64,000 nucleotides of DNA from an uncultured delta proteobacterium (GCA_963816145.1 CAWFJP010000008.1:1-64000); one strand, 5' to 3'; shown: positions 3,017 through 61,670, numbered from the stretch's first letter. The notes: generated by a model not told the origin, from the letters alone. A program made the numbers and translations.

Positions 3017-3288
3017 GATGTCCCTCCTTGATTTTCCAACTTTCAATTAACGTGTAGATGATTAACGCTCAATTCTTTTTTAAAAGGCTCTCCTATTTAA
3101 TATAATCTGTCTCTAACGCAAAAGAAGGATATTAACAAAACATTTACAATAATAAAACCTTATATATTTATCTACCAGTCCTTATCATAAATTTGCTAAA
3201 ATATAAAAATATCTAGATTCTCCTTTACAACCCATTTGTAAAAATGTAGAATATCTATATACATAAAATATCTAGGTAGGTGATAAGG

Positions 3289-3636
3289 ATGTTTGATCGG
3301 GAATTGGTAAAAGGAAGTACTTCGCTACTGTTGCTACAACTCTTAGGTGAGCGAGATATGTATGGATACGAACTGGTAAAGGAATTAGAAAAGCGTAGTG
3401 GTAATGAATTTTCTATTAAAGAAGGCACATTATATCCAGCACTCCATAAACTTGAAAAACAAGAGTACGTTGAATACTATTGGCAAGAGCAAGAGAAGGG
3501 GCCGGCAAGAAAATATTATCACATTACGGATGCAGGAAAAGAAATGTTACAAGAAAAAACCCGTGAATGGAACGACTTTGTTTCAGTAATCAACAAAGTA
3601 ATAGGGAGAACAAGTCATGGAACGGCTAAAGAATGA
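3289..3636 (+). CDS. PadR-family transcriptional regulator
   Basis: [27 protein letters not shown]. Confidence 0.93.
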
Positions 3637-4028
3637 GTTTTTATCACAACTGAATGATTGTCTTGGAGAACATCTAGAAAAAGATTCCATCTTAAAGGAA
3701 TATGAAGTCCATTTAGATGAATTACTTTTGGAACTTCTCGATTTGAAGGATGAATCAGAAATACGGATCGATCTATACGAGGTTAGGCACGCCAGAAGAA
3801 ATTGCTGATATGTGGGAAGATGAACTTTCGGTGACTCCAAGTCGTATGAAATGGCTATTCATTGCCGTTAATATATTCCTTTTTGGCGGGGGAGGTGTTC
3901 TTACTTTAGCTCACAATCTATTCCAATGGAATTGGATTTCTAATTTGTGGAATCAATTAACATCCATACCGATATTAATTGCCCTCATTTATATGTGTTT
4001 TTGGGCCTTGCTGGGTTATGAAATAGGG
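3617..4028 (+). pseudogene. PadR-partner membrane protein (HAAS-like N-terminus), frameshifted near 3765 and cut off at the compositional junction
   Basis: FL..L...L....EKDSIL.EY..HL continues in another frame as RLGTPEEIA plus TM helices; the fit ends after LLGYEIG. Confidence 0.7.
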
Positions 4029-4040
4029 ACGGCGGAGAAT
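4020..4040. other. Junction between AT-rich Bacillaceae-like DNA and GC-rich DNA
   Basis: Abrupt change in composition and codon style inside the apparent 3750..4421 ORF; no att site, IR or mobility gene seen. Confidence 0.8.
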
Positions 4041-4091
4041 GAAAGTAAGAGAGAGATAGGCGGGCTCGATAAAAGAAATCAGGATATTTTT

Positions 4092-4421
4092 ATGCCCAAG
4101 TTTTTAATCCAAGCTACTTTCAACCAGGAGGCCGCGAAGCGACTTGTCGAGGATGGCGGCACCAAGAGAGCGGCTGCTGTTCAAGAACTCCTTAGACAAC
4201 AGGAAGCGCGCTTAGAGACTTTGTATTTTAGTCCACAGAACGAAGGGCCTGATGTTTTTGCCATAGTCGAGGTGCCAGTAGGTGGGGCCGACGCTTTTGC
4301 GGTTATCGCTCTCGCCGGCAGGACTGCAGGGATTACGTTAACTGCCAGGAGGATATTTACTCCGGAGGAGTTGGATAAGCTAGCGGCAAAGAGTAAGAGC
4401 ATTCCTGTGCCCGGGAAATAA
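4092..4421 (+). CDS. GYD domain-containing protein
   Basis: MPKFLIQATF....AKRLVEDGGTKRAAAV..LL....LE.LYF....DV.AIVEVP...TPEELD. Confidence 0.75.
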   Translation: MPKFLIQATFNQEAAKRLVEDGGTKRAAAVQELLRQQEARLETLYFSPQNEGPDVFAIVEVPVGGADAFAVIALAGRTAGITLTARRIFTPEELDKLAAKSKSIPVPGK

Positions 4422-4550
4422 GTCTCGGTTCGCAGATTCATTTCGGACGAAATAATTTGCTCTAGAATGCGGCACGTGAACTCCACGCGCCGCCTGGAGC
4501 CCAATCTTGCAGCGACGCTAGTTAGGATGAAACTAAGGAGGTCAGCTGTC

Positions 4551-5369
4551 ATGCCGATCATCACAATTTATCAAGGCGCTTCTGGCGATGGTCAGGAATT
4601 GGCCGAAGCGGTGGCTCAGGCTCTCGGCTATCGCTGCGTCGGACGCGAGGTGCTCGTCGAGGCGAGCCGGCGCTATGGCATTCCCGAAGCGAAACTCAAC
4701 GAGATCGTCGAAAAAGGCCCGCACTGGTGGGAACGTCTGCTGCAAGATCTGCGGCCCTACCGGATCGCGCTTCAAGCGACGTTGTGCGATCTGGGGCAGG
4801 ACGGGAAACTGGTCTACCACGGCCACATGGGTCATGAGCTGTTGTCCGGCATCGGCCATGTCGTCAAAGTTCTGCTGACCGCGCCAATCGAATTTCGCGT
4901 CGAACAAGTCCGGGCACGACAAAATCTGACTGATGTGGCGGCGCGCCATTATATTGATGAGGTCGACAAGGCGCGCAGCCGCCGGCTAATGGAGATGTTC
5001 GGCGTCGATTGGTGCGATCCCAATCGTTATGACCTGGTCCTCAACATGGGCAAAATGAGCCGAGAAGGCGCGCAGCGAGTGATTATCGAGACAGCCAAGC
5101 TCGACGAGTATCAGCCCACTGCCGCATCGAATCTGGCCTTCAACGACCTCTCTCTCGGTTGCCGGGTTCACGCCACGTTATTTGCGTCACCCTACGTACG
5201 AGGGTCGACTATCGAAGTTTGTGCCAAGGGTGGCGAGGTTCAAGTGAAGGGAAGAGTAGAGCTAGGATTGGAAGACGAAGTCTTGAACGTAGTGAAGAGT
5301 GTACCGGGTGTCAACAAGGTGACATCTGAACTTTATTCGGTCCCGGCCGAAGGTTATCTAGAACCTTGA
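4551..5369 (+). CDS. Cytidylate kinase-like family protein with C-terminal BON domain
   Basis: IITI.QGASGDG.ELAEAVA..LGY, V.LTAP.EFRV, YDLVLN; C-terminal GEVQVKG...VKSVPGV..V; AGGAGG RBS. Confidence 0.85.
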   Translation: MPIITIYQGASGDGQELAEAVAQALGYRCVGREVLVEASRRYGIPEAKLNEIVEKGPHWWERLLQDLRPYRIALQATLCDLGQDGKLVYHGHMGHELLSGIGHVVKVLLTAPIEFRVEQVRARQNLTDVAARHYIDEVDKARSRRLMEMFGVDWCDPNRYDLVLNMGKMSREGAQRVIIETAKLDEYQPTAASNLAFNDLSLGCRVHATLFASPYVRGSTIEVCAKGGEVQVKGRVELGLEDEVLNVVKSVPGVNKVTSELYSVPAEGYLEP

Positions 5370-5440
5370 GGGAGGGAGAATTTTCAGGATCAATGAAATC
5401 CCGATTCTGAGGCCTTTTTTTTTGCCCAGGAGGAATCACG

Positions 5441-5875
5441 ATGGCGAAACAAACACAATCCATGGAAAAGAAAACCCTGAACACTCCGGACGAGATCAGA
5501 ACGTTCGATAAGGGCAGGGTCGAGCTGGCGACGGTTGGTACGGTTACGTTTGGCCGGGCCAGTTTCCAACCAGGGTGGAAATGGTCCGAGTCGGTTAAAC
5601 CGCTTGTGAAGACCGAATACTGCGAAGCGCCGCATGTTCAGTATCACGTTTCTGGACGACTAAAAGTAAAAATGTCGGACGGCAGCGAACAGGAATTTGG
5701 CCCTGGCGATGTCGGAGTTATTCCTTCCGGCCATGACGCCTGGGTAGTTGGCGACGAGCCGGCAGTGATCATCGACATTTCAGGGATGACGCGTTACGCC
5801 AAGCCGGCGGCCAGGAAGGTCGCTAAAAAATCCGCCAAAGCAAAAGCTGGAAAGAAAAAGAAACGCCGACGCTAG
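5441..5875 (+). CDS. Cupin-domain protein with Lys-rich tail
   Basis: FQPGWKWSESVKP, C..PH..Y..SG.L, IP.GHDAWVVGDEP; AGGAGG RBS. Confidence 0.88.
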   Translation: MAKQTQSMEKKTLNTPDEIRTFDKGRVELATVGTVTFGRASFQPGWKWSESVKPLVKTEYCEAPHVQYHVSGRLKVKMSDGSEQEFGPGDVGVIPSGHDAWVVGDEPAVIIDISGMTRYAKPAARKVAKKSAKAKAGKKKKRRR

Positions 5876-6046
5876 TGTCATGGTCCAGAAGTTCCCAAAA
5901 CAAGTCAGACGGCCTCATATCGTCATGCCGGAGAAAGCCGGCATCCAGGTTCGCGATTTTCCTGGATTCCGGGTCGCGCTAGCTATCGCCAGCTTGCCCG
6001 GAATGACGGATGAAATATGTAGCGAACTTTTGGGTCGGCACACTAG
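5872..6046. mobile_element. 175-bp MITE, family A, copy 1 (CTAG at both ends, internal REP-like palindromes)
   Basis: Near-identical to 60445..60619; imperfect TIR CTAGTGTC.TGGTCCAGAAGTTC / GAACTTTTGGGTCGGCACACTAG. Confidence 0.85.
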
Positions 6047-6167
6047 TAGCAGCCAAGAGCGGACCGTTAGTTCTTAAGCTGCCGTCCCTCTGCCCGCACA
6101 CAAAAAGCTTTTTAATGTCCCTTTCGGGGATGGTTGAAATCTGTCGCCTTCAGGCAAAGAGAAGGTT

Positions 6168-6325
6168 TGTCATGCCGGCGGCTAACGTCACCCCGGTGAA
6201 AACCGGGGTCCATCCCCTGTCCCCAGAATCTGGATACCGTTTTTCAACGGTATGACGGACGCTGTCCGTCACCTGGATTCCGGCCCCGGATCGCGTCCGG
6301 GGCAGGCTCTGCGCCGGAATGACGA
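6168..6325. repeat. Cluster of GTCA...TGAC REP-like palindromes
   Basis: GTCACCCCGGTGAAAACCGGGGTCCA, CTGGATACCG...CGGTATGAC, CTGGATTCCGG...CCGGAATGAC. Confidence 0.7.
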
Positions 6326-6499
6326 AAGCAAGAGTCGACTTCCGGTCGATAAATTCAGAACCCCTCGACTTAAAGCCGAGGGTCATTCATTTCGTCCTCA
6401 GTGGCGATCCTTGTGCCCTTGCGCCAGAGATCGATTTCGGATTTCAATCTTGATCGTGCCAAGCATGTCCTGAGTCTCGTCGAAGGGTTGCCAAATCAA

Positions 6500-6745
6500 C
6501 AAAATCCGAAAATCCGAAACTCGAAATCCGAAACAAATTCGAAATGTTGAAAACAAATACAATGTTCCAAACGACATCAAGTGGGATCCGATGTTTTGAA
6601 TTTTCCGAGTTTTGAATTTAATTTTGGTCCCAGTTTGTTTCGGATTTTGTGCTTGGGATTTCGGATTTGGTGTTTGTGTATTAGTTTAGACTTTCGGTTT
6701 GCGGAACCGCTTTAGTGCTTCGAATTTTGTGATCCCGAAATTTCA
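6500..6745. repeat. Inverted repeat built from ~7-nt AATCCGA/TCGAAA units
   Basis: AAATCCGAAAATCCGAAACTCGAAATCCGAAACAAA mirrored by TTTGTTTCGGATTTTGTGCTTGGGATTTCGGATTT; relative at 46492..46635. Confidence 0.75.
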
Positions 6746-6812
6746 AATCTATTTGGTTAGATTGCATCATTGACGCCACCAAACGCCTGAAGTACAAGTC
6801 AGCTCAGCCGCT

Positions 6813-6869
6813 GGGGGAGCTTGGTGCCGCAGCGTCAGCCGATCCCGTCATACGCATAGTTTCTCCCCC
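6813..6869 (+). ncRNA. Probable Acido-Lenti-1-like structured RNA
   Basis: GGGGGAGCT/AGTTTCTCCCCC closing stem around GGTGCCGCAGCGTCAGCCGATCCCGTCATACGC; family match is from memory, not searched. Confidence 0.55.
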
Positions 6870-6903
6870 CGACCGACATCTCTGTTTCGGTCTTTTTGTT
6901 GAT

Positions 6904-13548
<6,645 letters not shown>

Positions 13549-25855: not shown

Positions 25856-27520
25856 ATGGCTGACAGCATTAACGGAACCCAAAACAACTCCGTGTTAAAC
25901 CCGGTGGGCTACCCGCCCAAGATTACGCCCAAAGCGCTGGCTCCCCGGCTCGACAGCCTGGATGGCAAGACCGTCTATCTGGTCGATCCGCGCTTCGACG
26001 ACTCCGGGTTGTTTCTGCGCCAATTGCAGAGTTGGTTCGCCGACAACATGCCGGCGGTCAAAACCAAGTTCATCGAGATGAACAACGTCTACACCAAAGA
26101 CGATCCGAAAACCTGGGAGAAGATCAAAGCCGACGGCGACGCCGCTATCGTCGGTGTCGGTCATTGAAGCACCTGCGCGCCGGCGGTCGCCGCGCATGCC
26201 ATGACCCTCGATAACAAATACGGCGTGCCCACCGTGGCGCTGCATACTCATGTCTTTGAAAAGGTCGTCGAATCGGTGAACCGCGTGCACGGCATGCCGC
26301 GGGCGCCGCGGGCGTTCGTGCCGCAGCCGGTGATGGGCAAGACGGCCGCGCAGTTGCGCGCCTATATCGAAGGCAAAGATCCCATCACCGGCCGGCCGGT
26401 GATGCAGGAAGTCATCGAAGGCCTAACCCAGCCCATCGACGACGCCGGCGTTCTCAGTGAGAAGTTGGCCTACGCCGCAACGCCGCGCTTGGTCGATGCC
26501 GATAGCGAAGAGAATTTGCAGCAGCTATTTCTGGATATGAATTGGACCGACAAGCTGCCGATCGTTTTGCCGACCGAAAAGCGCGTTCAGGAAATGCTCG
26601 CCCACACCAGCCACAAGCCGGATGAAGTGGTCGGCCATATGCGCTCGACCCATTTCCGCGACTACTGGGAATACACGGTGGAAAAAGTCGCGGTCAACGC
26701 GGTGATGGCCGGCGCCCGGCCGGAATATTTTCCAGTGATCCTCGCGCTCGCTGCCACCGGCGTCACCGCCCGCGGCAGCACGTCGAGCTCGGCGGCGGCC
26801 ATGGTGGTCGTCAACGGACCGATTCGCAACGAAATCAAAATGAACAGCGGCACCGGCGCCCTGGGGCCGTTCAATCACGCCAACGCAACCATCGGCCGCG
26901 CCTACGGCTTGCTCTCGCAAAATGGCCAAGGCAGCTCGGTGCCCGGCTTCACCTACATGGGCTCCCAGGGCAACAACTACGCCTACAACAACGTGACTTT
27001 CGCCGAGAACGAAGAGCGCAGTCCCTGGACACCATTCCACGTCGAACATGGCTTCAAAGCCGCCGACAGCACCGTCAGTGTCTTCACCGGCTGCCGTTCG
27101 ACGGCGTTCACCCTCGGCGTGCGTGAGAAGTTCTGGCGCGAGCATGTGCGCAGCATGCTGCGCGGCTTGGACGCGCACAGCCAACCGACCTTTTTGCTCG
27201 ATCCTATCACCGCGCGCCAGTTCATCGACCGCGGCGGCTTCGATACCAAGGAGAAGTTGATCGACTGGGCTTATGAGAATTCACTCATGGCGGCCAAAGA
27301 ATATTGGGATTATCAACTGATCCAAAATTACATCCTGCCGCGCGCCACCTTCGGCGAAGAACCGTACGCTTCGAAATTGAAAGCCGCGCCGGACGAAATG
27401 GTTCATATGTTCAAACCGGAAGAAATCCATGTCGTCGTCGTCGGCGGCGAGACCAACGGTTACTGGCGGATTATGGATTGTAACTATCAGAAAACCGTAT
27501 CGGTGGATAAATGGAGATAG
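25856..27520 (+). CDS. UGSC-family selenoprotein (554 aa with UGA 26165..26167 read as Sec)
   Basis: ORFs 25856..26167 and 26201..27520 share a frame; readthrough gives GVGH-U-STC-AP (UxxC); LAPRLDSLDGKT N-terminus; D.LPIV.PT, VEKVAVNAVMAGA.P, NATIGRA, ENEE.SPW. Confidence 0.9.
26174..26196 (+). promoter_or_regulatory. Putative SECIS hairpin
   Basis: CGGC-GGTC-GCCG upper stem, extendable with GCG/CGC; loop begins after a 17-nt gap from the UGA. Confidence 0.7.
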
Positions 27521-37699: not shown

Positions 37700-39241
37700 A
37701 TGGACAGTTCACTGTTCGACGCCGCCATCAAAGGCTTTCTAAACATTCTTCAACTCAAAGTATTCTTCGCCATGCTCATGGGCGTTAGCATCGGTACTTT
37801 CACCGCCGTTGCGCCGCAAGGACTCGGCATGCCGCTAGTGTACGCCATCGCGCTGCCGGTGGTGATCAAATGGGAGCCGGTGACCGGCATCGCGTTTTTG
37901 ATCGGCGCCAGCGCGGTGAGCGCGATCTGCGCAGCTTATCTGCCGATCCTGTTCGGCATCCCCGGAGGCTCGGGCTCCCAGGCCACCGTGCTCGACGGTT
38001 ATCCGATGGGCAAAAAGGGTGAAGGCCGGCGCGCTCTCGGCGCCTCGTTCATGGCCGGCGGCATGGGCGCTTTGATTGGTACGTTTACGCTCGTAGCCGC
38101 GATCCCCGCCGCCAAACCGTTAATTTATTTGATGGGCTCGCCGGAGCTGTTCGTCATCATGCTGTGGGGCTTGAGCATGGTCGCTGTGCTCGCCGGTAGC
38201 CGGCCGCTCAAAGGACTGATCGCCACAGCCTTGGGCCTGTTGCTCGCCACCGTCGGGCAGCAGGCGCAGAGCGGCATAATGCGTTTCGTTTACGATCAAC
38301 CGTACTTACTCGACGGCATGTCGGTCAGCATCATGGCATTGGCCTTGTTCGGCGTACCGTCTGCGCTTGACCTCGCCTTGACCAAACTCGGTGTCGAACA
38401 ACAACCGGTACCGCTCAAAGGCAGCCTATTCGATGGCGTCAGAGATGCGTTGCGCGAGTGGTGGCTGGTTGTCCGCTGTAGCTTTGTCGGCGTCTGGGTC
38501 GGCATTGTGCCTGGCTTGGGCTCGCAAGTGGTCGACTGGCTTGCTTACGGCCACGCTGCGCAAACCTGCAAAGGCGGAAGACAAACCTTCGGCACCGGCG
38601 ACGTCCGCGGAGTGATCGCGCCGGAAAGCGCCAATGATGCCAAAGACGGCGGCGATTTGGTGACGACTCTACTCTTGGGATTTCCCCAAGGTGTAGTTAC
38701 GGCGCTGTTCATCGTCGCCCTGCTGGCGTGGGGATTCGTCCCCGGTCCCGAGATGATCAAGAAAAACCCCGAAGTCATTTATAGCATCGTCTGGCTTCAG
38801 GGGATCTCCGGCATCGTCGGCACGCTGATCGGGTTTTGCCTTGCCAGCCAGCTCGCCAAGCTCGCCGAGGTACGTTACACCTTCATGGTTCCGATCATGT
38901 TCATGTTCATCCTGATGGGCGCCTTCAGCGTCAACCGCGATCCGCTGGATCTGGTCGTAGTCGTCGCCTTCGGAATCCTCGGTTACTTCATGCGCCGCAC
39001 CGGCTATCCGCGCCCGGCGATGATTCTCGGTCTGGTGCTGGGCGATCTGATGGAAAAATATCTTTACCGCTCGGTGGCGAGCTATGGCTTCAGTTGGCTC
39101 GGCCGCCCTGCCGTCATCGTCCTGTTCATCATCGCCGGCGGCTCACTCTTTTTGACGCTGCGCGGCAAGATGGCCGCGAGCAAGGAAGATTCCACGGCGA
39201 CTTTTAGCGGCGCCATCGCGAGGTCCGACAATGAAGATTAA
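37700..39241 (+). CDS. tctA: Tripartite tricarboxylate transporter large permease
   Basis: IL.GIPG....AT.LDGYPM.K.G, G..RGVIAPESANDA, multiple TM helices. Confidence 0.92.
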   Translation: MDSSLFDAAIKGFLNILQLKVFFAMLMGVSIGTFTAVAPQGLGMPLVYAIALPVVIKWEPVTGIAFLIGASAVSAICAAYLPILFGIPGGSGSQATVLDGYPMGKKGEGRRALGASFMAGGMGALIGTFTLVAAIPAAKPLIYLMGSPELFVIMLWGLSMVAVLAGSRPLKGLIATALGLLLATVGQQAQSGIMRFVYDQPYLLDGMSVSIMALALFGVPSALDLALTKLGVEQQPVPLKGSLFDGVRDALREWWLVVRCSFVGVWVGIVPGLGSQVVDWLAYGHAAQTCKGGRQTFGTGDVRGVIAPESANDAKDGGDLVTTLLLGFPQGVVTALFIVALLAWGFVPGPEMIKKNPEVIYSIVWLQGISGIVGTLIGFCLASQLAKLAEVRYTFMVPIMFMFILMGAFSVNRDPLDLVVVVAFGILGYFMRRTGYPRPAMILGLVLGDLMEKYLYRSVASYGFSWLGRPAVIVLFIIAGGSLFLTLRGKMAASKEDSTATFSGAIARSDNED

Positions 39242-39695
39242 TTTCGCGCTGTTTCTGCTCGTGGTCTTTGCCGTCGCCACGGTATCCGGTTGGGGCTGGC
39301 CCGACATCGCCAAGATCATGCCGGTGTATGTCGCGGCCATGCCGGGGCTCGTGATGATCAGCGTCCAAATCTATCGCGAGGCAACCGGCTGGGAGACACG
39401 CAAGAACGCCACCGGTATGGATATGGATGAGAGCGGCGAGAATCAATTGGACGAAGCCACCGCACGCAAGCGCACGCTGTTATTCTTTGCTTGGTTCATT
39501 GGCGGCGCACTCGGCATCTGGCTCATCGGCATCGTCTATGCCCTGCCGCTTTTGGTTTTTCTCTACGCGCTCGTCGAAGGCAAAGAAAAATGGTTCACTT
39601 CGCTTATTCTTGGCGCCTGTGCCTATTTAATGATCTGGGGTCTGTTTGAATATATGCTCGAGACGCGCTGGCCGGCGGGGCTTCTTTTTGGATAA
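39231..39695 (+). CDS. tctB: Tripartite tricarboxylate transporter small permease
   Basis: About 150 aa with 4-5 TM helices, overlaps tctA, ends LF..L...WP.GLL. Confidence 0.85.
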   Translation: MKINFALFLLVVFAVATVSGWGWPDIAKIMPVYVAAMPGLVMISVQIYREATGWETRKNATGMDMDESGENQLDEATARKRTLLFFAWFIGGALGIWLIGIVYALPLLVFLYALVEGKEKWFTSLILGACAYLMIWGLFEYMLETRWPAGLLFG

Positions 39696-43639: not shown

Positions 43640-45034
43640 ATGACCAAAACTCAACAATCTCAAAGCGCTTATCGCGCGATCAGCCAATTTCACGAAAATC
43701 AAAGCCTGATTTCATGGCTGCAAAACCAACGATTGATCATCTGGCTGACGCCCAATCGTCGCAGGTTTTTTTTAGTTATCGGCGCGCTTCTTGTCGGTGG
43801 TAAAGGCACATGGAGCCGATACCTCAAATGGCTGGAAGGCTCAACCGGAACCTGGCTGATCCCCGTGCTCACTTTTGTTTTCCTTTTAGGCTTGGTTTAT
43901 CTGGTTTACCAGGCCGCAGCGCACTTCCAGAAATTGCCTGGGTGGATTAAAAGACGTCCGCAAATTTCCCTGCACCTGCTTTTTTGGGGAGTTTTTGCGT
44001 TACTCTGGGCTATCCCGGAAGACGCTGGAGATTTTCGTAATGCTCTGATGCTCGTCGCGATCTCGCTGCCGATTCTGCTGTGGCGCTGCGGCTACATGGT
44101 GATGTCAGGGCAACGCGGGAAAGCACAGCGCACAAAATTTCGCGATCATTTGTTCTACCTATGGCCTGTTTGGGGGGGCACCAACACGCCGATCGGTAAA
44201 GGTTTCGACTACCTCTCGCAGCGTGAAGCCCAAACCCCAGAAGCTTATGCCCGCTCCGTACTTGCGGCGACCAAATTAATTATTCTCGCTCAGCTGCTCG
44301 ATCTCTTTAGAATCATCTTGGGAGCGATCCTTTACGGCGACTCCAGTAACGCCTTCACCCGCATGTTTGCCGGCCTAAATCTGGGGATGCCTCGCCTGAA
44401 CGAAATCGTGACCGGTCAAAGGGCGGCCTCACCATGGGTCGGTTGGATCGCCTTATACCTTGAGCTGATCTGGGAAACCTTAAGGCACGCCACGCTGGGT
44501 CACCGCTGGGTCTCGCTCCTGCGCCTTTGCGGCTTCAATGTTTTCCGCAATACCTACAAACCACTATTGGCCCAAACGATACTCGATTTCTGGAATAGGT
44601 ATTATTATTATTTCAAAGAATTACTTGCCGAATTCTTTTTCTTTCCGATCTACCTCCGCCATTTCCGCAACTCGCCCAAGTTGCGAATCTTTGCGGCTGT
44701 TTTCGCAGCCGCGTTCGTGGGTAACATGTACTACCACTTCCTGGAGGGGAGGATATCTTTCGCCAAGGGTGAATTTTTACAAATTGTCCGCGCTCTGAGC
44801 CCGCGAATGATATATTGCGGGCTGCTGACCTTGGGCATCTATTTTTCCATGATTCGGCAAACCCAGCGCCGTGGCAAGGTCGAGCGGAGCGATGCAGCCA
44901 CGGAAAGATTCCTCACCTTGCGGCGCATCGCCGGTGTCTGGACGTTCTTCGCTCTGATCAATTTATGGAACACAAGAGCTGCCGGGTCGATCGGCGCACG
45001 CATCACCTTTCTATTTTCGCTCTTCGGATTTTAG
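43640..45034 (+). CDS. Polytopic membrane protein, divergent MBOAT-like
   Basis: N.YKP.LA.TI.DFWNRY....F.P followed by AF.GN.YYHF, resembling the MBOAT FWxRW...H region. Confidence 0.6.
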   Translation: MTKTQQSQSAYRAISQFHENQSLISWLQNQRLIIWLTPNRRRFFLVIGALLVGGKGTWSRYLKWLEGSTGTWLIPVLTFVFLLGLVYLVYQAAAHFQKLPGWIKRRPQISLHLLFWGVFALLWAIPEDAGDFRNALMLVAISLPILLWRCGYMVMSGQRGKAQRTKFRDHLFYLWPVWGGTNTPIGKGFDYLSQREAQTPEAYARSVLAATKLIILAQLLDLFRIILGAILYGDSSNAFTRMFAGLNLGMPRLNEIVTGQRAASPWVGWIALYLELIWETLRHATLGHRWVSLLRLCGFNVFRNTYKPLLAQTILDFWNRYYYYFKELLAEFFFFPIYLRHFRNSPKLRIFAAVFAAAFVGNMYYHFLEGRISFAKGEFLQIVRALSPRMIYCGLLTLGIYFSMIRQTQRRGKVERSDAATERFLTLRRIAGVWTFFALINLWNTRAAGSIGARITFLFSLFGF

Positions 45035-45213
45035 CCGCCAGTGATTTTTGAGTACCTGGGAATCTGCTACTTCGCGCCGCACAGTGTCACCGATTCGGCG
45101 CTGGGTTTCGCTGTGACTGACAACCTCTACCAATCGCCAATCATCTGATATATCTGTACCGGCACAGCATACCGCGCTGCGACCACAATAAATTTGCCGA
45201 AACGGAAAATTCC

Positions 45214-46488
45214 ATGCGTTTAGAACTTGGCCTGTTTGACATTAGAGACGTCCGTTTCGGTCCATCCACCGTCATTGCGGATAGAGCTTTGTTGATTAAT
45301 CGCGACGAACTCTGCGCTTTGCTCGCACAAGAGCCGCTCTTCGAACGCGTCGAAATCGAGCTCGCCCACCCCGGCGAATCCTGCCGCATATTGCGCGTGC
45401 TTGACGTCCTCGAACCTCGCTATCGCTTGAACGGTCCCAACTTTCCCGGCGCGCTTGACGGCAACGGCCTGGTGGGCGACGGCGCGACGCGCGCGCTGAA
45501 GAATGTCGCGGTCGTCGAGACCGATCAGACCGCGCCGCGCTCGCGCAGTTTGATCGACATGAGCGGGCCGGCGGCGGACTATTCACCCATCGCCAATACC
45601 AACAACGTCGTCTTGCTGCCCTACCCGAAGAAAGATGTCGACAAGATCGAGTATCGACTGGCCGTCAAAAAAGCCGGACTTAAAACCGCGGTCTATCTCG
45701 CCGCGGCGGCGACGGATTTAAAACCGGACGAAACCCAGGTATACGAATTGCCGCCGGTGGCGGCGAATCAGGGGCCCAAGGAGTTGCCGCGCATCGCCTA
45801 CATTTTTCCGATGCACTCGCACCAGCATCCAACCCAGCAGAAAGAGACGGTCTTTTACGGCAGCAACATTCAGGGCTTCATGCCCACCGTCGTTCATCCC
45901 AATGAGATACTCGACGGCGCGTTGATGTTCTCCTACTCCGCGTTTACTTGGTTCGCCCAGAACCATCCGGTGATCTTGGAGCTGTACCGTCGTCACGGCA
46001 AAGATCTTTGGTTCGCCGGCGTCGTCCTCACCGTCGCGCCGGCGGTCGTCTCCGAGAAGGAGCGCAACGCTTTTCTCAATGCGCGACTGGCCAAAGAAGT
46101 CCTGAACGCGGACGGCATCCTCGCCACCAAGATCGGCGGCGGCGCCGTCGATACGGATTTAATGATGACCTATAGCCGCGCCGAAGAAATGGGCATGAAA
46201 GCCGCGTTGATTATCATGGAACGCTACCCCGATACTGGCATCACCTTCGTGCCGGAGAATGTCAATGCGCTGGTCACGCCGGGACTGACCCGCGATCCGA
46301 TCACGCTCCCCGCCGTCGAGCGCGTCATCGGCGGCGAGACCCTGCACCTGGATAATGCGAATCCGGACAATACCAACCCCGGCATCCCGCCGTTGCCGGC
46401 AAAGCAAGAGATCACCGTCTGGATGGGCGACCTGGTCGGCGCCATCAGTCAAACCGGCGCGTCGCGGCTAACGACGTATATGAGTTAA
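45214..46488 (+). CDS. Glycine/sarcosine/betaine reductase component B proprotein-like subunit (GrdE/GrdI family)
   Basis: MRLELG.F.I.DV.FG..T, PGES.RI..V.DV.EPR, IDMSGP.A.Y.P, MPT..HPNEILDGA, QNHPVI.ELY.RHGKDL.F.GV. Confidence 0.9.
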   Translation: MRLELGLFDIRDVRFGPSTVIADRALLINRDELCALLAQEPLFERVEIELAHPGESCRILRVLDVLEPRYRLNGPNFPGALDGNGLVGDGATRALKNVAVVETDQTAPRSRSLIDMSGPAADYSPIANTNNVVLLPYPKKDVDKIEYRLAVKKAGLKTAVYLAAAATDLKPDETQVYELPPVAANQGPKELPRIAYIFPMHSHQHPTQQKETVFYGSNIQGFMPTVVHPNEILDGALMFSYSAFTWFAQNHPVILELYRRHGKDLWFAGVVLTVAPAVVSEKERNAFLNARLAKEVLNADGILATKIGGGAVDTDLMMTYSRAEEMGMKAALIIMERYPDTGITFVPENVNALVTPGLTRDPITLPAVERVIGGETLHLDNANPDNTNPGIPPLPAKQEITVWMGDLVGAISQTGASRLTTYMS

Positions 46489-46491
46489 AGC

Positions 46492-46635
46492 AAATCCGAA
46501 ATTCGAATATCGAAGCTCGAAACAAATCCAAATGTTCATAATCCAGAAAACTCTAAAACCGGCCGGTTTTGAATTTTGAGCTTTGAATTTGGACCCAGTT
46601 TGTTTCGAATTTCGAGCTTCGGATTTCGGATTTTC
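46492..46635. repeat. Heptamer-built inverted repeat between the grdE-like and grdB-like genes
   Basis: AAATCCGAAATTCGAATATCGAAGCTCGAAACAAA ... TTTGTTTCGAATTTCGAGCTTCGGATTTCGGATTT. Confidence 0.8.
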
Positions 46636-46663
46636 CCGTGGACAAGGTTACGGAGTTAAAAAT

Positions 46664-47952
46664 ATGAACCAAAAGATCCGCGTCGTGCATTATTTGAATC
46701 AGTTCTTCGCCCAGGTGGGCGGCGAGGACAAAGGCGATGTCGGCCCCACCGTCAAAGCCGGCGTGATCGGCGCTGGACGCGCGCTCCAGCAGGCACTCGG
46801 CGAAGACGCCGAAATCGTCGCGACAATTTATTGCGGCGATAACTTTTTTGCCGAACAGCAAGATCAAGCCATCGCCCAACTGCTCCAGCACACGGCCGAA
46901 TTTAAAGCCGACTTGCTGATCGCCGGTCCGGCCTTCGAGAGCGGCCGTTATGGCGTCGCCTGCGGCGCCATCTGCCACGCCGCGCAGCAAAAGCTCGGCA
47001 TCGCTACCGTCGCTGGCATGGACGAAGACAACGTCGGCGCCGGCTTGTATCGCAAGAACGTCTATATCATCAACTCCGGCGCATCGATCGCCCGCATGGT
47101 GCCGACGCTGCAACGGATGGCCGCGCTCGGCTTGAAACTGGCGCGCCGTGAGGCGATCGGCAAACCGGCGGACGAAGGCTATCTCTCGCGCGGTGTGAAG
47201 CGAAATGAAATTGCGACCAAGCCGCCGGCCGAGCGCGCCGTCGACATGCTGCTGGCGAAGATCGCCGGCAAGGTATTCCACTCGGAAATCGCGCCGCCGA
47301 AATTTGCCGGCGGCAAGCCGGCCGCGCCATTGCGCGATTTGAAGTCGGCGGTGATCGCTTTGGTCACCGACGGCGGCCTGGTTGTCGAAGGCAATCCGGA
47401 CAAGATCGAGCCGGGACGGCCGACGCGCTTCACGACCATCCCGATTCACAACGTCAACACGCTCGACGCCGACAAGTTCGACGCCGTGCACTCGGGTTAC
47501 GACACCGCCAGCGCCAATCGAGATCCCAACCGCCTGGTGCCCCTCGATACCTTGCGCGAGCTCGCCCGCGAAGGCGTCATCGGCGCCGTCCATGAATTCA
47601 TTCGCTCCACCGGCGGCGCCCACGCCGCGGTGGAGAACGCGACGCAAATCGGCCGGCAAATCGCCGATCAATTGAAAGCCGCCGGCGTCACCGGGGTGAT
47701 TCTGACATCCACCTGAGGCTCGAGCACTCGCTGCGGTGCAGCGATCAGCAAGGAAATCGAAAAGCTGGAGATCCCGGTGACGCAGATCTGCACCATGATC
47801 CCGGTCGCCAAAGAAGTCGGCTCGCTGCGCACCATCGCCGCCGGCGGCATCGTCAGCCCAACGGGCAATCCGAATTATCACCGGAAAAAGAAAAACAGTT
47901 CAGACGGGAGCTGGTCTTGCGCGCATTGCAGACGCTGCAACAGGAAGTGTGA
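46664..47952 (+). CDS. grdB: Glycine/betaine/sarcosine reductase selenoprotein B-like (Sec at UGA 47714..47716; 1-bp frameshift near 47871)
   Basis: VVHYLNQFFAQ.GGE, IAGPAF..GRYG.ACG, ALVT.GG.V..GNPD.IE, VILTST-U-GSSTRCGA..KEIEK; shifted tail ELSPEKEKQFRRELVLRALQTLQQEV*. Confidence 0.88.
47728..47744 (+). promoter_or_regulatory. Putative SECIS hairpin
   Basis: Perfect TCGCTGC-GGT-GCAGCGA stem starting after an 11-nt spacer from the UGA. Confidence 0.8.
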
Positions 47953-47973
47953 TTTATACTTTCGGAATATTTC

Positions 47974-48100
47974 CCGCATAAACGCAAAGACGCAAAGTTA
48001 AGAGAAAATGTCATTTCGACCGAAGGGAGAAATCTCGGCCGAATTCCGGCATCTTCTCTGGATTGACGGGCTTCGCCCGTTACTTAGCGCCTTTGCGGGA
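47974..48100. repeat. CGCAAAG 9-mer inverted repeat with a GTCAT REP
   Basis: CGCATAAACGCAAAGACGCAAAG, GTCATTTCGACCGAAGGGAGAAATCT, CTTAGCGCCTTTGCGGGA. Confidence 0.7.
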
Positions 48101-48129
48101 TAAATCTTGACTATGGATGATTTGTATTC

Positions 48130-48327
48130 AACGCCGCAAAACTTTTCATCGATCTCACCCTCTCGAAGGAAGGCCAGGAGCTGATCAAGAGTTTCAACCG
48201 CATCCCCGACCGTGGCGACGTCACCTCCGAGCTGAAAGAAGGCCTCAAACTCTATCCCGCCGACCCGCGCTGGGGCGACACCTATGGCAAATACGTGGAA
48301 GAGTTCCGCGAGATCTTTTTCAAATAA
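48130..48327 (+). pseudogene. C-terminal remnant of an extracellular (Fe3+-type) solute-binding protein
   Basis: NAAKLFIDLTLSKEGQELI...RIP.R.DV...EEFREIFFK*; no start codon; absent from the ORF track. Confidence 0.7.
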
Positions 48328-48668
48328 GCGCAGCGGTTAGGCGCGCGCCAACGCCTCACCCTTTACCCCCTCACCCCTTACCGTCAACCTACCGAGTAGC
48401 AATCTTGCTACACCGAGTAGCAAAACGACTACACCTGTCCTTGCGACGGCTAGCCAACTGCACCGTCAGGCCGTGAACATTCCGTTTCATTTCAAGCCCT
48501 TTCGCTCGGTGCCACGCGCCACTCCACTGGCATGGCCCTTGTACTGTAATCAGTAAAGTTATCAGTAAAGTTATCGTTGACAGCCAATCACGATGGTGGA
48601 ACAAGATCGAGACAGCTCGATCCCTGACTTGTTATTTGGTGTCGCCCGTCCAGCCCTTGGAGGAAACG

Positions 48669-49646
48669 ATGCAGGCAAAACTAGTCCTTTCCATAATCGG
48701 CGCTTTCCTTCTCGCCGCGTTTCAGTCCGCTCACACGCAGCAACCAAAGAAAATCCCGCGCATTGGCGTTATCTCAGGAACTGGCAATACCAACGAGGCG
48801 GATTCGAGTGCCAAATTATTGCGCCAAGCGCTGCAAGACCTTGGCTACTCCGAGGGGGGAAATATCCAGTTTGAGTTTCGCGACACCGATGGCGATAGGG
48901 AGCGCATCCCGGCCATTATCGCCGAACTGATCAACCTCAAGGTCGATATTCTTTTCTCTACGCAGGCGATCGTGATCCGCGCCGCCAAGCAGGCGACCAA
49001 GACCATGCCCATCGTCATGGTGATTACTCCGGATCCGGTCGCGACTAAGCTAATCGACAGTCTGGCGCGTCCTGGTGGCAATATTACCGGACTCACCAGA
49101 CTTACCCGCGCCCTGAGCGGCAAACGGCTGGAACTGCTGACCGAGATGATTCCAGGCCTTTCACGGGTAGGCATCCTTTCAATGGCTGGCGTCGCTCCGT
49201 CCAAGGATTATGAAGCTGCGGCTCGTAGTCTCAAGGTGCCGTTGCAAATCCTCGAAGTGCCAGGGCCACCTCCCGACTTACCCAGGGCTTTCCAAGCAGC
49301 CGTCAAAGGGCGTGTCAGCGCGATTATCACAACCAGCACTCCAGGGCTCGCGGGTCACCAAAAGCAAATTGCCGATCTTGCCGTGCAAAATCGGCTGCCG
49401 TTAATGTCAGAGAGTATTGCAGGTGTCGAAGCCGGCGGCCTGGTAACCTACGATGCCAGCAGAGCTGAAGTTTTCAAGCGCGCCGCCGTCTTCGTCGACA
49501 AAATCGTCAAAGGCGCCAAGCCCGCCGACCTGCCGGTGGAGCAGCCGACCAAATTCGATTTCGTGGTCAATCTGAAAACCGCGAAGCAGATCGGCTTGAT
49601 TATCCCACCCGAAGTTTTAGCGCGGGCGAATCGAATAATTCGCTAA
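48669..49646 (+). CDS. ABC_sub_bind substrate-binding protein
   Basis: QQPKKIPRIG, SLARPGGNITG, conserved tail. Confidence 0.92.
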   Translation: MQAKLVLSIIGAFLLAAFQSAHTQQPKKIPRIGVISGTGNTNEADSSAKLLRQALQDLGYSEGGNIQFEFRDTDGDRERIPAIIAELINLKVDILFSTQAIVIRAAKQATKTMPIVMVITPDPVATKLIDSLARPGGNITGLTRLTRALSGKRLELLTEMIPGLSRVGILSMAGVAPSKDYEAAARSLKVPLQILEVPGPPPDLPRAFQAAVKGRVSAIITTSTPGLAGHQKQIADLAVQNRLPLMSESIAGVEAGGLVTYDASRAEVFKRAAVFVDKIVKGAKPADLPVEQPTKFDFVVNLKTAKQIGLIIPPEVLARANRIIR

Positions 49647-60737: not shown

Positions 60738-61670
60738 TTATTCGATCTCCCGGACAAGACGGAATCCGAGCGCCCGAAACCGAGCACCCGCGCGGAAAAG
60801 CCCGCGAGACGATGAACGTGCATCTCCGATGTAACTACCACCGCGCCGCACACGCCCGTCGCAGTCGCCATTGTGTTCCTTTTCCCAAGCCGATCCATCC
60901 GACGGCGCTCCTTGGTAATTATCGTGCCAGCAATCCTGTACCCACTCCAATACGTTGCCGGCGGTATCGTAAAGGCCAAAGGAATTTGGCTTAAACGAAC
61001 CTACCGGTACGGGCTGTTTGCTTCCCCACCGGCTGTCGCAGCCAATACAATTAGCAAAGCCTGGCTTCTTCTCGTTGCCCCACCAATAGACGGTCTCGGT
61101 TCCGCCGCGCGCGGCATATTCCCACTCGGCCTCGGTCGGCAGCCGGTAGCGCTTGCCGGTTTGTTGCGATAACCACTCGGCATAGTCGACAGCATCGTAC
61201 CAAGAGACTCTTATCACTGGCCTGCGGCCCCGACCAAAACCTTCGTCGTCCGGTATTTGGCGGCTGGTTGCCTTGGCAAACTCGTTGTATTGATCAAAAG
61301 TGATTTCATACCGGCTCATTCCAAACGGTCTACTAATATGCACCTCGTGCACCGGTTGCTCATCTTTGGTGCCTTTACCCTGGATGTCGCCCATGCGGAA
61401 TCTGCCCGCAGGAATGACAATCATCTCAGGAGCGTCGGTTCCGTTTTTCAACCGGTCACGAAACACTTGTCCGGTTCTCAAACCAGGTCGCGCGGCCGAT
61501 GAAACGGACAGCGTTGGCAAAAGCCCTGCTTCCGGCTCGCCAACCAGCAGCAAGCCCGCTCCAAGAAGAACCATTGAGCCTTTGCCCACTAACATCTCAC
61601 TTAACCTTGTCTCTGGTACGGCATACGCCCGAGAACAAATCCCGCAGGGTTTGTTCGTAGAAAAAACCAT
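60738..61670 (-). CDS. Formylglycine-generating enzyme (FGE/SUMF1) domain protein (start uncertain)
   Basis: IPAG.F.MG, E.P.H.V, RLPTEAEWEYAARGG, N.FGLYD..GNV.EW, GFRL. Confidence 0.9.
   Translation of the reverse strand: MVFSTNKPCGICSRAYAVPETRLSEMLVGKGSMVLLGAGLLLVGEPEAGLLPTLSVSSAARPGLRTGQVFRDRLKNGTDAPEMIVIPAGRFRMGDIQGKGTKDEQPVHEVHISRPFGMSRYEITFDQYNEFAKATSRQIPDDEGFGRGRRPVIRVSWYDAVDYAEWLSQQTGKRYRLPTEAEWEYAARGGTETVYWWGNEKKPGFANCIGCDSRWGSKQPVPVGSFKPNSFGLYDTAGNVLEWVQDCWHDNYQGAPSDGSAWEKEHNGDCDGRVRRGGSYIGDARSSSRGLFRAGARFRALGFRLVREIE

Follow-up and report, generated by a model that had tools for sequence, protein, structure and literature searches.

A conserved branch of GrdE/GrdB-type selenoenzymes with altered active-site motifs in an uncultured delta proteobacterium

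Selenoenzymes of the protein B type, which pair a GrdE-like subunit with a selenocysteine (Sec)-containing GrdB-like subunit, have been described for glycine, sarcosine, betaine and fluoroacetate, and the related PrdA/PrdB pair has been described for proline. As substrates, betaine, sarcosine, proline and fluoroacetate each exposed a distinct chemistry of Sec at a carbon-heteroatom bond. We analysed a GrdE-like gene and the adjoining GrdB-like selenoprotein gene at positions 45,214 to 47,952 of a 64,000-nucleotide (nt) stretch of DNA from an uncultured delta proteobacterium (GCA_963816145.1 CAWFJP010000008.1:1-64000), which is called the window below. The pair belongs to a conserved and so far uncharacterised branch of a kind of enzyme that is already known, and we consider it fairly probable that it is a protein B-type selenoenzyme acting on a substrate other than the known ones.

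With GrdE/GrdB and GrdG/GrdF, the window pair shares both Pfam families, the gene order, the retained motifs YxNx6GGE and CGD, and Sec at the homologous position (351, compared to 347-350). It differs from them in that the segment SGNC(V)xxC of the E-type subunit is replaced by FSYS, in a loop that is six residues shorter, and in that U-GTC-TRC of GrdB and GrdF is replaced by U-GSS-TRC; the wider sequence motifs of GrdB and GrdF are not matched either. Betaine reductase (GrdI and GrdH) is, likewise, a two-subunit protein B with an E-type subunit that lacks the processing Cys and with Sec in TST-U-G. However, GrdH keeps U-GTC-TRC and TVGTGTTQ, GrdI and GrdH fall in another clade, and in Enterococcus gilvus they are encoded together with trxB-trx-grdA-grdC-grdD and a BCCT transporter.

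The fluoroacetate reductase pair of Synergistota, FarE/FarB, resembles the window pair in that CxxC is absent from FarB and the processing cysteines are absent from FarE (PMC10838667), and its operon has no grdA, grdC or grdD. Unlike FarE/FarB, to which it is not sister in the tree, the window pair keeps Cys357 and has Ser242, and neither an antiporter nor a radical-SAM gene adjoins it. Finally, D-proline reductase (PrdA/PrdB) has a homologous Sec domain and needs no GrdA, GrdC or GrdD, and it provides a model for a GrdA-free route; PrdB, with 241 amino acids (aa) and U-GTC-HRS, keeps the very Cys that is lost in the window. The kinds of motif change found in the window have precedents: the processing Cys is absent from GrdI, and neither kind of Cys is present in FarE/FarB.

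A gene pair with altered active-site motifs

The pair consists of the following elements:

45214..46488, plus strand: GrdE-like subunit gene, 424 aa (Pfam PF09338, E 7.8e-95)
46664..47871, plus strand: GrdB-like selenoprotein gene, residues 1-402 up to a frame break, starting with ATG at 46664 (Pfam PF07355, E 3.8e-125)
47714..47716, plus strand: UGA codon for Sec351 of the GrdB-like protein; the same codon is TGA in relatives
47729..47743, plus strand: hairpin resembling a Sec insertion sequence (SECIS), with a 6-bp stem (CGCUGC/GCAGCG) and a GGY loop
47872..47952, plus strand: C-terminal 26 codons and stop of the GrdB-like gene in another frame, from translation and DNA alignment with five relatives

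Around the TGA the GrdB-like protein reads ILTST-U-GSSTRCGAAIS, and the motif strings that an initial annotation of the window had quoted for both subunits agree exactly with the translation. We compared the pair with 27 related loci, taken from one-genome-per-species contigs with up to 10 kb on each side. The two genes are adjacent in 24 of these loci, and the remaining three are cut by contig ends. TGA followed by GSSTRC is present in every one of the 19 loci in which the frame extends as far as this site; of the other eight, five are cut by contig ends and three are frame-broken upstream. Among full-length members of the clade, TST-U-GSS-TRC is invariant (15/15). Coverage of the query by the 120 best database homologues of the GrdB-like protein is only 86-87% throughout, and their lengths are 347-382 aa, mostly 350, which indicates that gene callers halted every one of them at the UGA codon. 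The 78 codons past the UGA are open in relatives and are under stronger purifying selection than the rest of the pair: the median ratio of nonsynonymous to synonymous substitution rates was 0.13 before the UGA, 0.055 after it and 0.106 in the GrdE-like gene (43-44 pairs each).

The hairpin begins 12 nt past the UGA and keeps all six stem pairs in 16/16 aligned sequences. Four substitutions in the stem alter one side only, to G-U, and none is compensatory, so that proof by covariation is lacking. The Rfam model SECIS_4 aligns to 47717-47754 with 22.9 bits (E 0.068), below its gathering score of 38; in the window and four of the loci, no Rfam family reached its gathering score, and thus no riboswitch betrays a ligand. 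The second selenoprotein gene of the window, a member of the UGSC family, shows that the organism uses Sec; the tRNA scan of the window returned no genes, and hence no tRNA-Sec within these 64 kb.

The reference proteins GrdB, GrdF and GrdH read TST-U-GTC-TRC, and PrdB reads TAG-U-GTC-HRS. The motif UxxCxxC, given for the selenoprotein B subfamily (PMC13188914), appears as UxxSxxC in the window and in 15/15 full-length clade members, i.e., only the first Cys is lost, while Cys357 is retained. In one related locus, L022, a second GrdB reads TST-U-GTS-TRS and has lost both. The canonical motifs quoted in the initial annotation proved accurate: SGNCVSAC occurs in the GrdE and U-GTCTRC in the GrdB of Acetoanaerobium noterae, and Peptoclostridium acidaminophilum GrdG/GrdF and E. 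gilvus GrdH agree with them. Its claim that both Cys features are missing holds in part; the first Cys of UxxC and the processing Cys are gone, but Cys357 is kept and Ser242 fills the processing position.

General family models recognise the GrdB-like protein (TIGR01918, 432.2 bits versus a cut-off of 65.45; PF07355, 418.2 versus 22). The equivalog hidden Markov models do not, with scores of about half of their cut-offs or less: for the GrdB-like protein, 384 versus 602.2 (GrdB, TIGR01917), 442.6 versus 800 (GrdF, NF040794), 399.1 versus 775 (GrdH, NF040795) and 79.3 versus 300 (PrdB, TIGR04483); for the GrdE-like protein, 251.6 versus 780 (GrdG, NF040793) and 224.8 versus 675 (FarE, NF053623). 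The PrdA model (TIGR04480) gave 19.6 versus 700. We also used the motifs published for GrdB (AHGGxD..., RV[IL]PxD and TxGNxTxV) and GrdF (IHGGYDR and TTGTGT) (PMC9751293). Neither set matched any of 15 clade members, whereas the controls, A. noterae GrdB and P. acidaminophilum GrdF, matched. The clade has its own invariant motifs in the GrdB-like protein, namely GPAF[ED][SG]GRYG (GPAFESGRYG in the window), VHSGYDT and TGGAHAAVENA.

Among 50%-identity representatives, which were searched exhaustively, 1044 clusters belonged to the GrdE family at E<=1e-3. The window clade corresponds essentially to a single cluster (P0122, 66% identity), the next being at most 47% identical. The GrdE tree had 120 rows (112 representatives of 395-470 aa out of 150 listed, the window protein, three references and four locus proteins) and was obtained by a quick search under LG+G4, with support given only by the Shimodaira-Hasegawa-like approximate likelihood ratio test (SH-aLRT), which should be read with care. 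In this tree the clade has a support of 100 and a stem of 0.46, and lies inside a group of 43 rows (96) that contains no canonical reference. The same group includes the second GrdE of L022 and the FarE-like representative P0221 (622 of the required 675 bits in the FarE model), which shares the shortened loop with the window protein. GrdG, the SGNC-type representatives and GrdI form a separate clade of 14 rows (99). In the GrdB tree (21 proteins, including four references) the clade is supported by 95/99 and stands apart from GrdB plus GrdF and from GrdH. The reference operons, all of which came from a plasmid collection, were those of A. noterae (trxB-trx-grdE-grdA-grdB-grdC-grdD), P. acidaminophilum (grdG-grdF with grdA), E. 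gilvus (trxB-trx-grdA-grdC-grdD-grdI-grdH) and Terrisporobacter (prdA-prdB).

In both subunit trees, then, the pair nests in none of the glycine, sarcosine or betaine reductase clades. Sequence comparison supports a substrate that differs from glycine, sarcosine, betaine, proline and fluoroacetate. Of the non-Stickland reductase for a different substrate that was proposed in the initial annotation, the substrate part is borne out by the models, motifs and trees; the non-Stickland part is not, given the grdC-grdA genes of L022 and the precedent of FarEB (see below). By sequence, neither subunit had more than chance matches in the PDB at E<=1, and Foldseek found no PDB match to the GrdE-like model at E<=1e-3. 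We found no description of the clade in the literature, including the accessible text of the preprint 10.1101/2022.07.06.499078; the tree in Fig. S6 of PMC9751293 may already contain it. GrdB/PrdB-like selenoproteins from oxic environments have been noted before (PMC2398784).

The clade is narrow and strongly conserved, and most of its members come from soil Binatia-type metagenome-assembled genomes (MAGs). Distinct clusters at 90% identity that come within 80% identity of the window protein number more than 120 in environmental data, i.e., the clade is abundant. Its active-site motifs are invariant and peculiar to it, and the genomes that contain it look aerobic. Database labels of the kind "glycine reductase", "sarcosine reductase" or "betaine reductase" on its genes are unjustified and over-specific. 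Knowing the substrate would widen the chemistry of the family and explain the use of selenium in soil bacteria.

Possible substrate and acceptor

In the mechanism that we favour, the GrdE-like subunit would stay uncleaved and without pyruvoyl, like GrdI and FarE. Without pyruvoyl, the substrate would not be an amine held as a Schiff base, and its substituent must leave unaided, as do the quaternary ammonium group of betaine and the fluoride of fluoroacetate. The substrate would be a carboxylate with a substituent on the alpha-carbon that leaves readily (e.g., quaternary ammonium, sulfonium or halide), probably imported via one of the numerous solute-binding/tripartite tricarboxylate transporter systems nearby. 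Sec351 would attack the alpha-carbon and expel the leaving group, producing a carboxyalkyl selenoether. This would be resolved reductively, by transfer to GrdA in genomes that have one (compare L022), or alternatively by thiols (Cys357 or the thioredoxin system) with no gain of ATP. The Cys of UxxC in PrdB has been proposed to resolve the selenoether (PMC3091704); the loss in the window of this Cys, which PrdB keeps, mildly favours a GrdA-type acceptor, whereas the fact that 26 of 27 neighbourhoods lack grdA mildly disfavours it.

Several points weigh against a protein B-type enzyme of this kind with a new substrate. Substrate and activity are putative, and contact between the subunits is expected from homology. 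An invariant Ser242 stands exactly at the position of the processing Cys, and since it is from Ser that the pyruvoyl of the decarboxylase class usually derives, a Ser-derived pyruvoyl and hence an amine substrate are conceivable. The neighbouring genes vary (solute-binding, Amidohydro_2/3, VOC/glyoxalase and PrpD families) and outline no clear pathway; moreover, solute-binding genes are so numerous in the window that their adjacency to the pair means little. Finally, the window copy is frame-broken and lies among other local changes, namely an MBOAT-like insertion, a truncated solute-binding gene and a repeat.

The partner genes were searched by tblastn with GrdA, GrdC, GrdD, thioredoxin (Trx) and TrxB against the window and the 27 loci (439,363 bases). 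As had been stated from the sequence of the window, it contains no grdA, grdC or grdD (tblastn at E<=1e-3, and Pfam on 62 open reading frames, ORFs). GrdA and GrdC were absent within 10 kb of the pair in 26/27 loci, with matches in L022 only, and neither GrdD nor Trx matched the window or any of the 27 loci; TrxB matched in the window and in L007 only. A protein B accompanied by grdA, grdC and grdD with trx and trxB is, accordingly, not what is seen in the window or the related loci. Locus L022, from an Acidiferrales MAG, contains at 3084-12584 the series grdC, grdA (with CFVU), a second GrdE and GrdB, Amidohydro_2, VOC/glyoxalase, and the clade-type GrdE and GrdB; no grdD was found within 10 kb.

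These data bear on an alternative, which we regard as possible but rather doubtful, that the pair is one more substrate-specific protein B of a full system whose GrdA, GrdC, GrdD and thioredoxin are encoded elsewhere, and which would yield an acyl phosphate in an energy-conserving, Stickland-like manner. In L022, a clade-type pair indeed lies directly downstream of grdC, grdA and a second GrdE/GrdB, and metagenomes commonly contain GrdC homologues (at least 120) that are 61-76% identical to that of L022. The farEB genes are likewise located apart from the grd genes, and FarEB is reported to work with a GrdA encoded elsewhere, grdA being upregulated with the substrate (PMC10838667). The loss of the Cys proposed as resolver in PrdB (PMC3091704) also makes self-resolution less likely. 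Conversely, GrdA and GrdC are missing from the window and from 26/27 loci, GrdD is missing from all 27, and oxygen-dependent families among the neighbours suggest that the hosts are aerobic. L022 provides a natural test bed for dependence on GrdA.

The oxygen-dependent families encoded near the pair are Rieske proteins, FAD-dependent and luciferase-like monooxygenases and cupins. A bolder version of the protein B reading, which we put forward only tentatively and think somewhat unlikely as a whole, is that the pair forms a selenoenzyme that tolerates oxygen, serves aerobic soil bacteria (Binatia and others) and does not depend on GrdA, GrdC or GrdD. It would reductively cleave a carbon-heteroatom bond beside a carboxylate, using a thioredoxin-type reductant only, in a substrate new to the family (e.g., a betaine from plants or osmolytes, a sulfonium compound or an alpha-substituted acid), and would perhaps carry the first Ser-derived pyruvoyl of the reductase class. 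If independence from GrdA were true, protein B could act as a stand-alone reductase.

Beyond the pair itself, the clade has no conserved partner gene. Among close relatives, a TctA/TctB/TctC-like cluster stands before the pair in 6 loci; after the pair there is an SBP_bac_6/8 solute-binding gene in 6 loci and an Amidohydro_3 gene in 8. For more distant members the direct neighbour encodes Amidohydro_2 (L016, L017 and L022) or a two-domain VOC protein (L018, L020 and L022).

Ser242 and processing of the GrdE-like subunit

Residues 230-246 of the GrdE-like protein read ...NEILDGALMFSYSAFTW..., and Ser242 takes the position of the canonical processing Cys242, with numbering identical to that of GrdE. 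We defined the register as D+8, i.e., eight residues past the invariant Asp of LDG. The D+8 residue is Cys242 in GrdE and GrdG, Cys411 in PrdA, Phe in GrdI (E. gilvus and A. noterae), Trp in the FarE-like representative, His in the second GrdE of L022 and Ser242 in the window; thus, the window protein lacks the Cys that marks a GrdE-type pyruvoyl proprotein. Past Ser242, the loop has the six-residue shortening noted above. The SYS loop is invariant in 120/120 close GrdE-like homologues, and the Ser is also present in A1. Of the 105 anchored, full-length family representatives nearest to the query, 41 have Tyr at D+8, whereas only 7 have Cys and 6 have Ser; in this sample, most of the GrdE family is not of the canonical proprotein type. 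GrdI and FarE have been described as non-proproteins (PMC10838667).

AlphaFold2 models had a mean predicted local distance difference test score of 94.1 for the window GrdE-like protein and 96.4 for the canonical representative P0208. In P0208, a strand (241-245) leads into Cys246 and is followed by a short helix, whereas the window protein is modelled as coil at 238-244. This predicted difference at the site is suggestive, though not decisive, and speaks against processing.

From these comparisons, we think it likely that the GrdE-like subunit is uncleaved. The opposite possibility is that it is a proprotein in which Ser242 cleaves the Tyr241/Ser242 bond and becomes a pyruvoyl group that would bind a primary or secondary amine as a Schiff base, as in the glycine, sarcosine and proline reductases. 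Its attraction is that Ser242 lies at the same D+8 distance as Cys242 of GrdE/GrdG and Cys411 of PrdA, and is invariant in the close homologues and A1, where other Cys-less members have Tyr, Phe, Trp or His. In work by Bednarski and colleagues from 2001, GrdE C242S was reportedly cleaved slowly in vitro. In pyruvoyl enzymes of the decarboxylase class, furthermore, Ser acts as the nucleophile and is usually the source of the pyruvoyl (PMC11229817). The same source, however, reports that PrdA C421S is not processed at all and that processing of PrdA requires Cys421, PrdB and PrdH, and the spacer between the GrdE-like and GrdB-like genes contains no PrdH-like small gene. With the shorter loop and the modelled coil in place of the canonical strand also opposing it, we consider a Ser-derived pyruvoyl unlikely.

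State of the locus and neighbouring genes

The frame of the GrdB-like gene is interrupted at about 47871, where one base is absent from the codon of Pro403: a DNA alignment with five relatives has a single gap, with AATCC-GAA in the window versus CCC/CCG GAA in the relatives. The frame that contains the UGA continues to 48001 with an implausible tail, while the canonical tail ELSPEKEKQFRRELVLRALQTLQQEV*, which the relatives read in one frame with the Sec codon, ends at 47952 in another frame. As a result, the 1-nt deletion exchanges the last 26 residues for 42 unrelated ones. The initial annotation had extended the pair to 47952, which is indeed where the canonical tail ends, but the frame is not continuous up to that point. 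Programmed frameshifting at 47871 was considered and set aside, since there is no slippery site and the relatives have one more base.

This lesion could signify that the locus is decaying in this genome and that the GrdB-like gene is a pseudogene. In line with decay, the solute-binding gene that follows GrdB in six close relatives is reduced to a remnant, and an MBOAT-like gene that is absent from all 27 related loci has been inserted upstream. Nevertheless, the deletion is the single lesion in 2.6 kb, and the rest has 87-92% protein identity to intact relatives. GrdB is also frame-broken in four related MAG loci (L019, L021, L024 and L025), and genes in the window itself are fragmented; for these reasons, an indel of the assembly is likelier than a pseudogene. 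We conclude that the deletion is most likely an assembly error and that a decaying locus is improbable.

The elements behind these statements can be given in more precise terms. Directly upstream of the GrdE-like gene, 43640-45034 (plus strand) encodes a 464-aa membrane protein without a Pfam or NCBIfam match, the nearest Atlas cluster of which is "MBOAT family protein" (with a very high score); its absence from 27/27 loci points to an insertion in this genome. Downstream of the pair, at about 47953-48476, only the C-terminal remnant of an SBP_bac_6/8 gene is present (ORF 48117-48476), which, compared to the full gene in six close relatives, implies a deletion of about 850 nt. Consecutive same-strand ORFs with GAF domains, ending in HisKA/HATPase, occupy 6904-13548 (plus strand); they look like one or two large sensor kinases split by several frame shifts, and they bear on the quality of the assembly.

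The spacer of 175 nt between the two genes contains one further feature:

46492..46633, no strand assigned: imperfect palindrome, resembling a repetitive extragenic palindromic (REP) element or a miniature inverted-repeat transposable element (MITE), with 35-nt arms that are 86% complementary

Its fold energy is -60.8 kcal/mol (z -5.9). The palindrome family has at least two copies in the window, the second at about 6500-6690. In relatives (L001-L026), the long hairpins found at this place in the spacer belong to three other sequence families, and in L015, L018 and L022 the spacer is only 10-12 nt long. Either the site is prone to acquire such repeats, or selection favours a hairpin between the cistrons. 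We set aside a regulatory RNA, because the palindrome is a repeat with a second copy and the hairpins of the relatives are unrelated to it. A scan of 44900-48700 for promoters and terminators found none in the spacer; over the whole interval, there were two promoter-like sites (1.5 expected) and nine terminator-like sites (4.9 expected).

Two other explanations of the pair are less probable than those above. GrdB reportedly has a peroxidase activity that is stabilised by GrdE-derived subunits, to judge by the title of a 2007 report by Grobe and colleagues, and the pair might by analogy be a thiol-dependent peroxidase or antioxidant selenoprotein in hosts that look aerobic. We consider this very unlikely: the motifs that are invariant in the clade, at the positions that discriminate GrdB from GrdF, suggest a defined site for a small molecule; both subunits are strongly conserved together; and the lost Cys is the neighbour of Sec that is said to protect from oxidation (PMC10838667).

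The last explanation concerns two genes on the same strand as the pair:

25856..27520, plus strand: UGSC-family selenoprotein gene, with TGA at 26165-26167 and VGH-U-STC, a fusion of 554 aa
27680..28603, plus strand: TrxB-like gene, 327 bits in TIGR01292, just below the cut-off of 343

The UGSC/TrxB pair had been placed about 18 kb upstream, which is correct (17.7 kb), and had been suggested to replace GrdA as an electron relay to a GrdA-independent reductase. Despite the shared strand, the UxxC redox motif of UGSC and a UGSC/TrxB pair in L007 that precedes the GrdE-like gene by about 5 kb, such a relay is highly improbable: L007 alone among the 27 loci has UGSC at a distance of up to 10 kb from the pair, and it is closely related, with gene order conserved; about 14 genes separate UGSC/TrxB from the pair in the window; BLASTP aligned the UGSC domain to GrdA at no E<=100; and the fusion to a domain of about 380 aa points to a job of its own. 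The suggestion finds no support, in view of the lack of detectable similarity to GrdA, the separate fusion family and the near absence of linkage. BLASTP gave no meaningful alignment between UGSC and the GrdB-like protein either, and the sole similarity detected was a weak, in-register match of hhalign to the Sec region of GrdB/PrdB (probability 18.6%, E 1.3e-3), which we take as no more than a lead. The family motif itself is U-STC here, not UGSC. The UGSC domain is the N-terminal part of the protein; the fused domain recurs with UGSC in other clusters, and UGSC fusions of this kind have been noted before (PMC2398784).

The window also shows a massive expansion of orphan solute-binding genes at 14883-57203, around one TctA/TctB pair (37700-39695), with ten ABC_sub_bind (PF04392) ORFs, two of them fragments, and at least eight TctC-like ORFs. 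At 60738-61670 (minus strand), 13 kb downstream of the GrdE/GrdB-like pair, there is a formylglycine-generating-enzyme-like gene with an FGE-sulfatase domain; formylglycine in the STUG motif of GrdB has been raised as a speculation (PMC10838667).

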